From IMG/VR virus record IMGVR_UViG_3300046507_000426: a stretch of 43,059 nucleotides of DNA. One strand, written 5' to 3'. This DNA is from a virus (taxonomy: Duplodnaviria; Heunggongvirae; Uroviricota; Caudoviricetes). The translations under genes were made by a program, and so were the position numbers. The first letter of the stretch is position 1. Each line of letters starts with the position of its first letter. The notes beneath the pieces were generated by a model. That model ran no database searches and was not told the origin of the DNA. It was given only the letters and a program-made list of their open reading frames with translations. Shown here piece after piece: positions 5,707 to 10,103 of this stretch.

Positions 5707-5721
5707 TATTCTTATACCAAA
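5707..5721 (-). promoter_or_regulatory. Candidate promoter -10 element TTTGGTATAAGAATA upstream of E1
   Basis: 15-bp exact match to 10668-10682; shares TTGGTATAA core with 9901-9917 and 9973-9989; overlaps stop codon of the zinc-finger ORF. Confidence 0.6.
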
Positions 5722-5945
5722 GAATTCGAATTCAATGGCCGAGGCCCAGTAGGTTCACCGATTATAACAATGCCCTTACTCGCAGCTTCTGCAGCATCAA
5801 GTTGAGCAAGGAAATTGGCCTTAGCGACTTTTTCAAGTTCGGGACTTGACGTCATGCATTTAAAACAGATCAACGCCCCGTTATGTCCATACGGACGGAC
5901 GTCAAATTCTTCGTGAAAGTCTTTGCAGTAGTGACAGAGTTTCAT
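5712..5945 (-). CDS. Small C4 zinc-finger protein (treble-clef/ClpX-ZBD-like spacing)
   Basis: CHYC-x19-CFKC; start overlaps stop of upstream ORF (TAATG). Confidence 0.65.
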   Translation of the reverse strand: MKLCHYCKDFHEEFDVRPYGHNGALICFKCMTSSPELEKVAKANFLAQLDAAEAASKGIVIIGEPTGPRPLNSNSLV

Positions 5946-6194: not shown

Positions 6195-7574
6195 TTAGTG
6201 AATACCGTTCATCTGGATACGTTCTTGAACTTCATCAGGGAGTTCCTGATAGAGTCGTTTGAACAAGGTTTCCATAGCAGGACCATCAGAAGCCATATGC
6301 AACATATCGGCCATAATGGTTTCTACCAACTCATCCTTACCACTGAGATTAGCCATGATGTCATCAATCAGACAGAATGCTTCTGCAGTGTCGTGACCAT
6401 GTTGAGCATGGACTTCATCGTAACGATCATCGCCTGCATACATGCTCATGCCGGGCCCATCTAGATAAGTCTGATTACGGATCTCTCCAGTAGCCTGATC
6501 GACGTCAGGATCGAACGCAGGATTATACCCAGCATTGCCCGTGTAAGCAGGGGGAAGATGCGACTCGTCATAGCTCGGATCTTCGAACGCACGAGCCAAC
6601 GCACGCTCTGCATATGCAAGCCTTTCATCCTCGCCATTCGGAGTCAGATTCCAGGCATCGTCGGGATGACTCAGTGCGGGGTTTTGGGCCATCCCCCAGA
6701 AATCACCCTGCCAGTCGATATCACGCCCGTCCCAGGATTCGCCGGGAAGTAACCCCCGTTGGTTCTGGAGATGAGGACCAGCTCTATTGCCTTCCTTTTC
6801 TCCGCTTCCCGCGTCTCCCTTTTTGTATTGCCACGGCTTCAAGTGTTCCGCTTTTCCCTTTGTGCTGTTCCCTCCATACACAGTAACCGGAGGCGTATAC
6901 GTATTGATTTTTGCAACCCAATCAGCAGGGACCGCTGCCTCAGGACGAGCCGGGAGTTCGAACACATCATCCAGTTCGCACTCGATCTTCTTGTCACGAT
7001 AGTTAAAGCGCCAAACCGTTTGCGGATTGGTACTCTTCAGATGTCCGACAACGCCTGAGAAACCGATGTTATTTTGATCATCACGATTATCCGTGCCACT
7101 GAAGAACGCACCCATCGTATTGTGACTATGAATATCACAGACGATAGTCTTGCCCGTCGGAAGCGACGACCAGTCATACGAAGCCGAAGCTTTCGATACA
7201 CGTTGATCCGGAACGATCAAGTGATAGCCACTTTCAGCGTCCCAACAAATCCAGATCATCGCCTCAACTTCAGACTTCTTGACTTCCATGACCTGTTTGA
7301 AAAACGCAACAACCTGGTCAAACAGTTCAATTGGGATCTTACCGTCAGGCAGAAAGTTGATTTCCTGAGAAATACGAGTCGTTTTATAGTTGTCCGGGAG
7401 CTTGTCAACTGCCAGACGAACATAACGATTCTGACCACGAAGCTTATGGTGCTTCAGAATCGGGGATTCCTTCGAACCGGTCATAACATAGATTTCGTTA
7501 TAGCCCGCTTCCATTGCAGCCGGAAGTTCGTTCGGGGTTACAACACAGCTGATGAATTGAGTAATGATGTCCAT
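6195..7574 (-). CDS. JAB/MPN+ metalloprotease (Prok-JAB, PRTRC protein A type) with long acidic C-terminal extension
   Basis: Upstream Glu (EVEAM) and DIHSHNTMGAFFSGTDNRDD JAMM motif (HxH-x7-S-xx-D); AGGAG RBS. Confidence 0.92.
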   Translation of the reverse strand: MDIITQFISCVVTPNELPAAMEAGYNEIYVMTGSKESPILKHHKLRGQNRYVRLAVDKLPDNYKTTRISQEINFLPDGKIPIELFDQVVAFFKQVMEVKKSEVEAMIWICWDAESGYHLIVPDQRVSKASASYDWSSLPTGKTIVCDIHSHNTMGAFFSGTDNRDDQNNIGFSGVVGHLKSTNPQTVWRFNYRDKKIECELDDVFELPARPEAAVPADWVAKINTYTPPVTVYGGNSTKGKAEHLKPWQYKKGDAGSGEKEGNRAGPHLQNQRGLLPGESWDGRDIDWQGDFWGMAQNPALSHPDDAWNLTPNGEDERLAYAERALARAFEDPSYDESHLPPAYTGNAGYNPAFDPDVDQATGEIRNQTYLDGPGMSMYAGDDRYDEVHAQHGHDTAEAFCLIDDIMANLSGKDELVETIMADMLHMASDGPAMETLFKRLYQELPDEVQERIQMNGIH

Positions 7575-7600
7575 CTAAAACTCTCCTGGAGTTGTTTTAC

Positions 7601-8365
7601 TTAAACGGCTTTGAAGCCGCGAAGTGATTCGTAGGGGAAAGGCTTATTGTCTTTTGCTGCATCAGCGAGTTTCTTGAACCAGGCTTCAATAGAAGGCTCA
7701 CCAGAAACTGCACGAAGACCCAGGTCATTGTTGAACGGGGATTCAAACAGGAACTGATAATACCAATCCAAGCCACGCAGGTTATTTTCCGTGAACTGTG
7801 TAGGCATTGAGTTGCCACCGTAGCACATGTTCCCTTCCGAATAAGTATTCGGGAACGGCGACAGATAGATATGCTTGTTACCGTCTACACCCCAGATGAA
7901 GGTCTTAGGCAAGTTACCTACTTTGGCATTCGTCGCATAGTATCTCGACCCAGTTGATTTCCACGTTTTCGAATTGTGGCGAGTCAGCTGATGACTGATA
8001 ATGAAGTTAGGCGCACGCACCGTGTACTTCTTATTCATGTGACGCATGTCAGCCACACGCTCAGCATAATAACAACTCAGTTGAATCGTGGTACTCGACT
8101 TTGCGAAATAGAAACAGTTCGACGGAAGCTGGAAGCCTTCCATCTGTTCCTCATTACGGTGATTGACAACTGCACCGATAATCGCATTAAAGTCTTCGTA
8201 CGAGACTCGCTTTTCGACTTGGCTCTTTTCATCGCCGACCATGAATGCTACGCAATCTTCGAGAAGAATAACGTGATGGCCTAGTACATCCACAAGTCGC
8301 TCTTGAGGCTTCAAAATTTCTTTAGCCACGGGAGCTTCTACAGCTTCGATAACAATATCTGTCAT
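7601..8365 (-). CDS. Prokaryotic E2-like conjugating enzyme (Prok-E2_D / PRTRC protein B type)
   Basis: IYLSPFPNTYSEGNMCYG (candidate catalytic Cys), LFESPFNNDL and terminal FPYESL motifs; context next to JAB and E1. Confidence 0.85.
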   Translation of the reverse strand: MTDIVIEAVEAPVAKEILKPQERLVDVLGHHVILLEDCVAFMVGDEKSQVEKRVSYEDFNAIIGAVVNHRNEEQMEGFQLPSNCFYFAKSSTTIQLSCYYAERVADMRHMNKKYTVRAPNFIISHQLTRHNSKTWKSTGSRYYATNAKVGNLPKTFIWGVDGNKHIYLSPFPNTYSEGNMCYGGNSMPTQFTENNLRGLDWYYQFLFESPFNNDLGLRAVSGEPSIEAWFKKLADAAKDNKPFPYESLRGFKAV

Positions 8366-8616
8366 ACAAAATCCTCTTCAGTATCTGTAACTGCGTGTTT
8401 GGCTTTAACTACCTGAACCTCGATATTTTTGAGATTCGCTTTGGTTCTGCGTACAGTTTCAACCTGGAACACTTGAACACAGGCCCTACTCAATAATTCG
8501 AGATCGGAATGAGTTTTAGGAATATCCACATCGTTGAATCTATTTACTGCTGCATAAACTTCAGAAGCCAAATCAGGTAGTTTCGACGCTTCCGACATTA
8601 AACGCTGAAGTATCAT
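8362..8616 (-). CDS. Small hypothetical protein translationally coupled to E2
   Basis: 84-aa ORF whose TGA overlaps the E2 ATG (ATGA); start could be the Met at 8598. Confidence 0.55.
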   Translation of the reverse strand: MILQRLMSEASKLPDLASEVYAAVNRFNDVDIPKTHSDLELLSRACVQVFQVETVRRTKANLKNIEVQVVKAKHAVTDTEEDFV

Positions 8617-9487
8617 ATTGTACCCGTCGTGTAAAAGTGGTAATCACCTTGATCATTTCGTCAAGGACTGTAAAGATCTTTTCAGATGTACTATATCGCT
8701 CAAGACCTGGATAATACTCAACCCTAGAACGACTGGTAAGAGGAGAAGCAGTCCACCTATCAGGATCTTTGAAACGTCTTATCGTTGTTTCATCACCCTC
8801 TTTGATAATGTGTTTCTGATATTCTTCATACGAAGTAATACTCAATTCTGGTGCAGAAGTGACAATTGCAGCGTAATTGGCAAATTGATAAATCACCAAC
8901 TCCGCTTTAACTGTAGAAACCGCTTTTACTCTAAAAGTAGCCTCACCGCTTCTTGTCTTCCACCAGGTTTCATACGCCGCTTCATCTTCCGGATGAATAG
9001 AAAACTCAAATCCCGGAGACAGGCTAATAGGGATACCGTTCTTAATAGCCTTATAGCGCAAGAATCTACAATACCGCTCTATACTTTTTTTCCATTTGAG
9101 ACTATCTGACGCAACGTCCGCAAAAGAAGGCTCAAGTCTACTAACAGTTACTGGAAAATATGGAGATTCCAGTTTGATACCTATCCCGTTAGGTCTATTA
9201 CTCAACGGGAACAGAAACTGTTCACCGCCACGAATATACTCAAGGTAAGGAATCTGTTTCTTAACATGCTTATAGAGAATCTCTTTAAGCTTCTGTACAG
9301 ATTTACGCTGCGCTCCTGAACGACTGCCGCTGATATCGAATTCGTAGTTAAACGTCTTCGTTGAGAGTCGCTTATCCAGGATCTGCTGCGTACAAAACTT
9401 CGAAAGTTTATTCGATGCATCTGTTCTCATCTTTATGATGAGCGATGACAGATCTGATACGTTCTGAGGTAATTTGAATTTTCGCAT
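8573..9487 (-). CDS. Hypothetical basic protein of the Ubl island
   Basis: 304-aa ORF, AGGA RBS 5 nt upstream, overlaps downstream ORF; no motif recognised. Confidence 0.7.
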   Translation of the reverse strand: MRKFKLPQNVSDLSSLIIKMRTDASNKLSKFCTQQILDKRLSTKTFNYEFDISGSRSGAQRKSVQKLKEILYKHVKKQIPYLEYIRGGEQFLFPLSNRPNGIGIKLESPYFPVTVSRLEPSFADVASDSLKWKKSIERYCRFLRYKAIKNGIPISLSPGFEFSIHPEDEAAYETWWKTRSGEATFRVKAVSTVKAELVIYQFANYAAIVTSAPELSITSYEEYQKHIIKEGDETTIRRFKDPDRWTASPLTSRSRVEYYPGLERYSTSEKIFTVLDEMIKVITTFTRRVQYDTSAFNVGSVETT

Positions 9488-9502
9488 ATCTATCCTGTTG
9501 TA

Positions 9503-9587
9503 TTCCTGTTTTTCTTAAGCTCCTAGCTTGACTAAAAAAAACAGGAAAAACGAACAGCAAAGCTAGGAGAGAACCTTGCTGTTCGTT
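9503..9587 (-). promoter_or_regulatory. Interlocked RNA structure: terminator-like hairpin with alternative pairings (candidate attenuator)
   Basis: Perfect complementary pairs 9503-9513/9537-9547 (11 bp), 9520-9529/9560-9569 (10 bp), 9549-9560/9576-9587 (12 bp); U-rich run follows the 12-bp hairpin on the minus strand. Confidence 0.7.
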
Positions 9588-9623
9588 CTGCTTACACAGA
9601 CTAAAGAATTAGTCTATGCGTGC

Positions 9624-9833
9624 TTAGCCCTTCGTGCCGGTACGCGGCTTGAAGGTGATTTCGCGGGCTTCGCCGCCATCGATGCTGATAACACGTTCGT
9701 CAGCTTGCATGCTGCCGATACCCGAGATATCGCCTGCGTAGTTCGTACGAACGAAGTCAACGCTACGGTCACCCGGAATGGTGTATTCGGTATCGGTCGA
9801 AGCAACAACGATGATGGTCTTGATAACTGCCAT
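9624..9833 (-). CDS. Ubiquitin-like (beta-grasp) modifier, Prok_Ub / PRTRC protein C type
   Basis: 69 aa, ends FKPRTGTKG-stop, matching the GTKG C-terminus typical of this family; AAGGA RBS; own tandem promoters; same island as E1/E2/JAB. Confidence 0.85.
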   Translation of the reverse strand: MAVIKTIIVVASTDTEYTIPGDRSVDFVRTNYAGDISGIGSMQADERVISIDGGEAREITFKPRTGTKG

Positions 9834-9849: not shown

Positions 9850-9863
9850 TTTATCTAGATAAA
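9850..9863. promoter_or_regulatory. Perfect 14-bp palindrome in the Ubl leader (candidate operator)
   Basis: TTTATCTAGATAAA is its own reverse complement; lies between promoter and RBS. Confidence 0.45.
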
Positions 9864-9900
9864 AAGAAAATGAACTTTGAGAACGTATGTTCTACCTGTC

Positions 9901-9936
9901 CAATATAGTTATACCAAACATTTCAAAATTATTGAA
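9901..9936 (-). promoter_or_regulatory. Sigma70-like promoter P1 for Ubl gene
   Basis: TTCAAT-N17-TATAAC with TGG immediately before the -10; 17-bp block identical to P2. Confidence 0.8.
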
Positions 9937-9972
9937 AATGTAATGGTTAATAAAAGCTATTCTTAGCCTTTA

Positions 9973-10008
9973 CAATATAGTTATACCAATGGACATAAAA
10001 ATATTGAA
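9973..10008 (-). promoter_or_regulatory. Sigma70-like promoter P2 for Ubl gene
   Basis: TTCAAT-N17-TATAAC; caatatagttataccaa repeated exactly 72 bp from P1. Confidence 0.8.
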
Positions 10009-10018
10009 TTTAACAGGC

Positions 10019-10086
10019 TAAAAAAAGCCCCGTCTATCCCCCTAGCAACCGGGGAAACACTAGAGGGGCGGCACGTCAGACGGGGG
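10019..10086 (-). terminator. Extended two-stem intrinsic terminator downstream of the 163-aa ORF
   Basis: Outer stem 10027-10034/10077-10084, inner stem about 10037-10044/10059-10066 (one G-U on minus strand), followed by T7 on minus strand. Confidence 0.7.
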
Positions 10087-10103
10087 CAAGAAAATTCTAG
10101 TCT

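Follow-up and report, generated by a model that had tools for sequence, protein, structure and literature searches.

A conserved, terminator-like RNA element with loop-loop complementarity between a ubiquitin-like gene and the E2-JAB unit of Arash-like phages

The window analysed here is a stretch of 43,059 nucleotides from a virus of the class Caudoviricetes (IMG/VR record IMGVR_UViG_3300046507_000426), whose nearest cultured relatives are Salmonella phage Arash and Vibrio phages D69, D148 and D181. On its minus strand lie a gene for a 69-aa ubiquitin-like protein that ends in GTKG (Ubl, 9624-9833) and, downstream of it, a promoterless unit (6195-9487) with genes for 304-aa and 84-aa unknown proteins, an E2 of family D (7601-8365, passing Pfam Prok-E2_D) and a JAB protein (6195-7574, passing Pfam Prok-JAB), which is closed by a terminator at 6191-6164. 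The AF2 model of Ubl (pLDDT 90) had a beta-grasp-like order (beta-beta-alpha-beta-beta), Foldseek gave weak ubiquitin matches with TMq up to 0.62, none of them significant, and the G-x-K-G end was invariant in 32 Ubl homologues. Ubl frames double the single unit in length (about 140 aa) were observed in L027 (2325-2747), L048, L049 and L054, and Vibrio phage D69 has a 263-aa Ubl frame with GTKG and a 5-residue tail at its end. The 304-aa protein (8573-9487) was kept behind Ubl family-wide and had no Pfam, NCBIfam or PDB fold match; it is a candidate for an undescribed component of the conjugation system. A ThiF E1, which passes Pfam ThiF, lies beyond the JAB terminator; the NCBIfam matches to PRTRC system proteins (PRTRC_A, PRTRC_B and ThiF) were all below cut-off.

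Two tandem phage promoter motifs (TTCAAT...TGGTATAA), 72 nt apart at 9909-10008 on the minus strand, are the putative drivers of Ubl and the downstream unit, and almost all relatives retain the motif ahead of Ubl. On the minus strand TGGTATAA was present at 9981-9988 and 9909-9916 and next at 5712-5719. Neither a sigma-70 scan nor this phage motif revealed a promoter between Ubl and the downstream unit, which agrees with an earlier note on this DNA, made from the sequence alone; therefore, the expression of the unit appears to depend on read-through from Ubl, as that note had supposed. The motif in 5712-5740 stands directly before the ThiF/E1 gene, and hence E1 is probably transcribed separately from Ubl-E2-JAB. 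The Ubl 5' leader (about 9857-9904) begins with a hairpin, kept across relatives in structure and not in sequence, which is probably a 5' stabiliser.

The earlier note had described three exact helices within 85 nt of the spacer between Ubl and the 304-aa gene, and all three were recovered as Watson-Crick inverted repeats on the minus strand: hairpin C (9549-9560/9576-9587, 12 bp), a terminator-like stem-loop whose loop holds the 5' strand of B; hairpin A, whose core of 11 bp (9503-9513/9537-9547) lengthens to 16 bp including two G·U pairs (9547-9532/9518-9503); and helix B (9520-9529/9560-9569, 10 bp), which joins the loop of C to the loop of A. Base 9560 is common to B and C, an overlap which the note had missed, so that at most 9 bp of B can stand alongside the full C. 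The 5' strand of B (9560-9569) has its core UCCUAG at 9568-9563 in the C loop, and the 3' strand (9520-9529) has its core CUAGGA at 9526-9521 in the A loop, which carries a Shine-Dalgarno (SD)-like AGGAG with no start codon behind it. A fourth hairpin, D (9595-9618, arms 9595-9604/9609-9618), also overlooked before, follows right after the Ubl stop and is variable in sequence, with the hairpin kept. A basal extension of C (AAGCAG/CUGUUU) was set aside, having no conservation in relatives.

Two U-runs were found, U5 directly 3' of C (9550-9546) and U8-AGUC at 9541-9530. The imperfect U-tract after C (UUUUUCCU, 9543-9550), with U at 6 of 8 positions, scored as terminator-like and is a candidate leaky release site, and the 5' arm of A (9530-9547, UUCCUG-U8-AGUC) consists of the ancestral terminator base and tail. 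C had been read as the terminator of Ubl; it is indeed a stable, covarying, terminator-like stem-loop, but the adjoining 8 nt hold just 4-6 U in relatives and the perfect U8 sits 7-10 nt off C. The idea that A sequesters the U-run has to be narrowed in the same way, since A does pair with a U-run but two of them exist and it covers mainly the second (U8). The 3' arm of A (9503-9518) does include a second AGGA (9507-9504), as had been claimed, but the ribosome-binding site of the 304-aa gene (9485-9496 together with the start codon, the AGGA being 9496-9493) lies outside A in all relatives.

The 142-nt spacer had a folding energy of -57.5 kcal/mol on the minus strand (z = -8.2) and a z of -4.9 on the plus strand. 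None of 3000 dinucleotide shuffles contained even two perfect helices of at least 10 bp, nor did any other 142-nt segment of the 107-kb genome, and loop-loop pairing of at least 9 bp arose in 9 of 50,000 loop shuffles. C and A coexisted in the lowest-energy fold, with the B core left free; C, A and a B core were mutually compatible by energy calculation, and B contributed -7.5 to -12 kcal/mol before loop or pseudoknot penalties in 15/15 members of the clade described below.

We gathered 15 distinct homologous spacers and computed region identities on 11 non-redundant sequences. The element was kept in the 15 intergenic sequences, which represent one clade of Arash-like phages. C showed 5 pairs with two-sided changes among the 15 sequences, so that covariation was present in the homologous regions. 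In A, 98% of 16 pairs were kept, and the changes were one-sided only, mostly A to G opposite U. A varies by G·U wobble only, which points to the minus-strand RNA as the conserved form, and the structural conservation in relatives that the earlier proposal called for was found; a function of the plus strand or at the level of DNA was set aside, as the same wobble pattern speaks for the minus strand. Stop-codon read-through or a conserved frameshift was likewise rejected, as the spacers, 123-148 nt long, keep no frame. Within the clade the 18-nt 5' arm of A was 100% identical, more than pairing demands, and its U-run was always exactly eight; pairwise identity was 36% in the D region and 66% at four-fold codon sites of Ubl. 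Loop-to-loop pairing by B had been claimed for the single sequence, and complementarity of 7-10 bp was present in every relative (15/15), with 99% of cells paired, a 6-bp core that was always complementary, and B arms spaced 32-34 nt in all members.

The origin of the element can be traced by comparison with 14 outgroup lineages (Arash, D69 and 12 uncultured ones), all of which had a canonical terminator at the same place 3' of Ubl, with a U7-9-AG tail at its end in 13/14. U7-AGU was invariant over 11 aligned lineages, and a pyrimidine-U7-AG tail is the fixed end of terminators across the phage family (17 matches versus 0 for the reversed control in one complete genome); in the window, terminators with this tail occur at 10026, 6165 and 4375, and they occur in related genomes too. 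In the outgroups the tail directly abuts the hairpin, with the ribosome site close behind, whereas in clade members the tail is detached from C by 7-10 nt and its U-run is paired downstream. Seven other tail sites in the present genome lie 0-3 nt from a hairpin, the Ubl element being the exception with 9 nt. The tail matched the E. coli pause consensus only partially, and it may serve the phage's own RNA polymerase as a signal; an RNA polymerase beta subunit is encoded in five related genomes, none was found in the present, partial genome, and Arash particles contained beta and beta' (PMC10585845).

The B-carrying forms were a single clade in the E2 tree (support 99/99), and the 5' strand of B was absent from the outgroups and from L029, a lineage whose 304-aa homologue had the top score outside the clade. 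In L029 the loop of C is UUCG, A carries compensatory changes, and B is missing; the UAGGAG of the A loop is found in it all the same, without a partner. The C-loop core of B arose with the clade, as the complement of an older A loop. L029, which the tree did not place firmly, may be an intermediate between the plain terminator and the loop-loop fold. Judged from these sequence comparisons, the C-B-A element evolved from an ordinary Ubl terminator.

From the sequences, helix B likely forms. Identity was 97% in its 5' core (C loop) and 100% in its 3' core (A loop), against 22% in the 5' part of the C loop beside the core. There was no in-register two-sided change among the 15 sequences, and the variation consisted of one shifted compensation in L015, where both loops are altered and yet ten Watson-Crick pairs remain around a one-base bulge, one pair gained by a single change in L008, and wobbles. 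It is quite improbable that B never forms and that the element is a pair of tandem hairpins whose loops are conserved for separate reasons: the missing in-register change, the UAGGAG kept in the partnerless L029 and the inner hairpins which compete inside both loops would fit that view, but it is opposed by the birth of the C-loop core as a complement, by the contrast between core and neighbours, and by the changes in L015 and L008. In kissing complexes that stack coaxially, each strand occupies the 3' side of its loop. Both strands of B are so placed, yet only 1-3 nt link stems C and A, which would favour pairing between molecules, as head-to-tail dimers or chains of read-through RNAs, or as finished RNA on a nascent C loop; we regard this as very improbable, as the fixed spacing of the arms suits a cis fold and a side-by-side cis arrangement appears feasible by rough geometry.

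The order of synthesis decides what the element can do during transcription. According to the earlier note, a conformational switch sets the Ubl:enzyme ratio or makes E2/JAB expression conditional, with A or B replacing the terminator and so determining read-through. The pairings of A over the U-run and of B with the C loop are indeed present in the sequence, but release would occur near 9543 or near 9534, and the 3' strand of B starts at 9529 and the 3' arm of A at 9518, so that the 3' arms of B (9529-9520) and A (9518-9503) are transcribed only after both U-runs. Such a cis attenuator fails because these arms do not exist when termination is decided, and we consider it scarcely tenable. Nascent-RNA folding found no antiterminator from sequence made before the release site and no upstream competitor of C, and the folds were not mutually exclusive, C and A standing together in the lowest-energy fold. 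Therefore, of the proposed switch a role in the ratio is likely, but a decision on termination by A or B is not supported. Two further candidates were rejected: an upstream antiterminator or ribosome control of C, since C forms at P of at least 0.9 regardless (14/14 nascent RNAs computed, naked or with the reading frame blocked), and a long-range terminator stem from the transcript 5' end, which was neither specific nor conserved.

We propose, with a probability of about 0.5, that the ancestral Ubl terminator was rebuilt into a two-stage, fixed-ratio device, a leaky terminator with a lock that closes after read-through. In the first stage, during transcription, C with its weakened U-tract would free part of the polymerases and yield Ubl-only mRNA, and the U8-AG signal, detached and 9 nt beyond, would add to the partial release; this stage may be weak, since some members have just 4-5 U among the 8 positions behind C. 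In the second stage, only in read-through RNA, the C loop would pair first with the newly made GCUAGGAG (B), and A would then zip over the U8 run. The compact C-B-A fold would hide the U-run and two anti-SD-like sequences, with the 304-aa ribosome site staying free, and it would present a layered barrier to 3'-5' exonucleases that protects the Ubl part after downstream cleavage, so that the Ubl part would outlive the enzyme part; Ubl would as a result stay in constant excess over both E2 and JAB. This model leaves the retention of UAGGAG in L029 unaccounted for and does not explain the need for B, since plain hairpins already stop exonucleases; against it also stand the lack of an in-register two-sided change in B and a ribosome-site effect, described below, in only 9/15 members.

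The 18-nt arm of A, invariant beyond pairing needs, could also mark a factor-dependent terminator, in which the polymerase would pause at U8-AG and let the RNA go only through the action of a further agent (a protein on C, a trans RNA, or the transcript 5' end pairing with UUCCUG) and A and B lock the read-through state afterwards; expression would be conditional, although not through switching by A and B. When nascent RNA is folded naked, the CCUG finds partners upstream, which in six members is the transcript 5' end, the phage family has its own RNA polymerase beta subunit, and TRAP is a protein that activates a weak terminator (PMC3064811). However, the upstream partner varies by member and is no better than the partners of other members, the 5' ends sit in hairpins of their own of similar or greater strength, and the analysis turned up no such factor, and we hold this explanation to be rather unlikely.

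Blocking the 3' arm of A lowered the accessibility of the ribosome site from 0.58 to 0.04 in the present sequence, and blocking the arm together with the loop gave values of at most 0.17 in 9/15 members; holding the B arms open left the accessibility unchanged in nested folding. These values count for the two-stage model and would also fit a translation gate, in which a GGA-binding protein of the CsrA/RsmA type or a ligand would favour the C+B pseudoknot and keep A open, and the freed UUCCUG would pair with the 304-aa ribosome site and shut the unit. C+B without A forms first and, before penalties, is less stable than the nested fold by only 2-8 kcal/mol, and three consecutive GGA motifs are present (loop, 3' arm of A, ribosome site). 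On the other side, the blocking had no effect in L004, L006, L027, L044, L048, L049 or L029, GGA is already expected from SD ancestry, and no CsrA gene was found in five phage genomes, so that the gate seems rather doubtful. An arrangement of another kind, for which the C+B pseudoknot and the completed A are the two states of a protein- or ligand-gated device acting after read-through and timing the ubiquitin-like conjugation enzymes, may be entertained tentatively as a minority reading; it would gate translation or modify the phage RNA polymerase, and would have evolved, with the same tentative standing, from the terminator by moving the partner arm downstream.

The very high sequence conservation and the pair of neighbouring stems some 300 nt from the promoter recall HK022 putRNA, a phage nascent RNA of two stems in a V shape, similar in size and near a promoter (PMC9378689). 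By analogy, the fold could bind the phage RNA polymerase after read-through and make it resistant to pauses and termination over the 3.3-kb unit. We consider this unlikely, since the outgroups have a plain terminator ahead of the same unit and express it without the element, there is no sequence likeness to putRNA and no Rfam match, and the available text on putRNA describes no loop-loop pairing (PMC9378689).

For the two-stage reading, the mccA-mccB intergenic terminator of the microcin C operon is, by analogy, the closest functional precedent: termination and stability together give about 20-fold more substrate mRNA, and the system has a substrate gene, a leaky terminator, two hairpins after the stop and substrate mRNA in excess over the enzyme genes (PMC4231749). 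The enzyme there is an adenylase, as is E1 here, but the E1 gene of the window is preceded by a promoter motif of its own (5712-5719); hairpin formation is under ribosome control there, whereas C forms regardless, and no loop-loop helix or tail-swallowing hairpin is described in the part of the source available (PMC4231749). Protective intercistronic structures of the malE-malF type (PMC5927463) resemble the element in being stable structures just 3' of an operon's first gene in read-through RNA, and a stable structure in this position is what the C-B-A element has; those are simple hairpins, while here the structure is terminator-derived, with the U-tail kept and a conserved loop-loop helix added. 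The guanidine-IV riboswitch (PMC11611296) also has two hairpins with pairing loops beside a terminator, but its kissing loop precedes the finished terminator and blocks it, whereas here the partner lies downstream of the U-runs and the element has no Rfam match or known ligand.

Rfam 15 gave no family at the gathering threshold (best 20 bits, E 0.54 or worse), and a nucleotide search of cultured phages found nothing relevant. With the covariance model each genome gave a single strong site, L029 being picked up as well at 31 bits, and pattern scans found no members outside the Ubl locus in viral contigs and none in bacterial genomes. Literature searches found no description of the element, though the supplement of a phage RNA-motif survey (PMC10690425) may list it. 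We conclude that the C-B-A element is a real, conserved and uncatalogued variant of the intercistronic terminator and stabiliser. Its reach is limited because it is single-copy and restricted to one uncultured clade. One locus gives a series from the plain terminator through the two-hairpin form (L029) to the loop-loop fold, which indicates how a structured cis-element can arise. Moreover, the element suggests that these phages keep the ubiquitin-like tag in excess of the enzymes, as a working conjugation pathway would need, and the U7-AG tail shared by the family offers a testable mark of the rules by which a little-studied phage RNA polymerase terminates.

Other arrangements of terminators were also observed. 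A second detached U7-AG lies at L131:1158 on the minus strand (G001:C1:8435-8446), just 3' of a terminator hairpin, where it has two alternative partners, the end of the reading frame upstream and a downstream AGAGGAGCG; it was found in two near-identical genomes only. L038:2206-2341 has a canonical terminator, then a separate long hairpin before the ribosome site and no loop-loop pairing, and in the terminator upstream of the Ubl promoters (window 10020-10090) a long nested hairpin replaces the short loop. In phage Arash the same cassette is present as gp251-gp246 (L068:102-4539), annotated as hypothetical or structural, and the particle preparation contained five of its products; as a cultured phage with this cassette, Arash is a practical test system.
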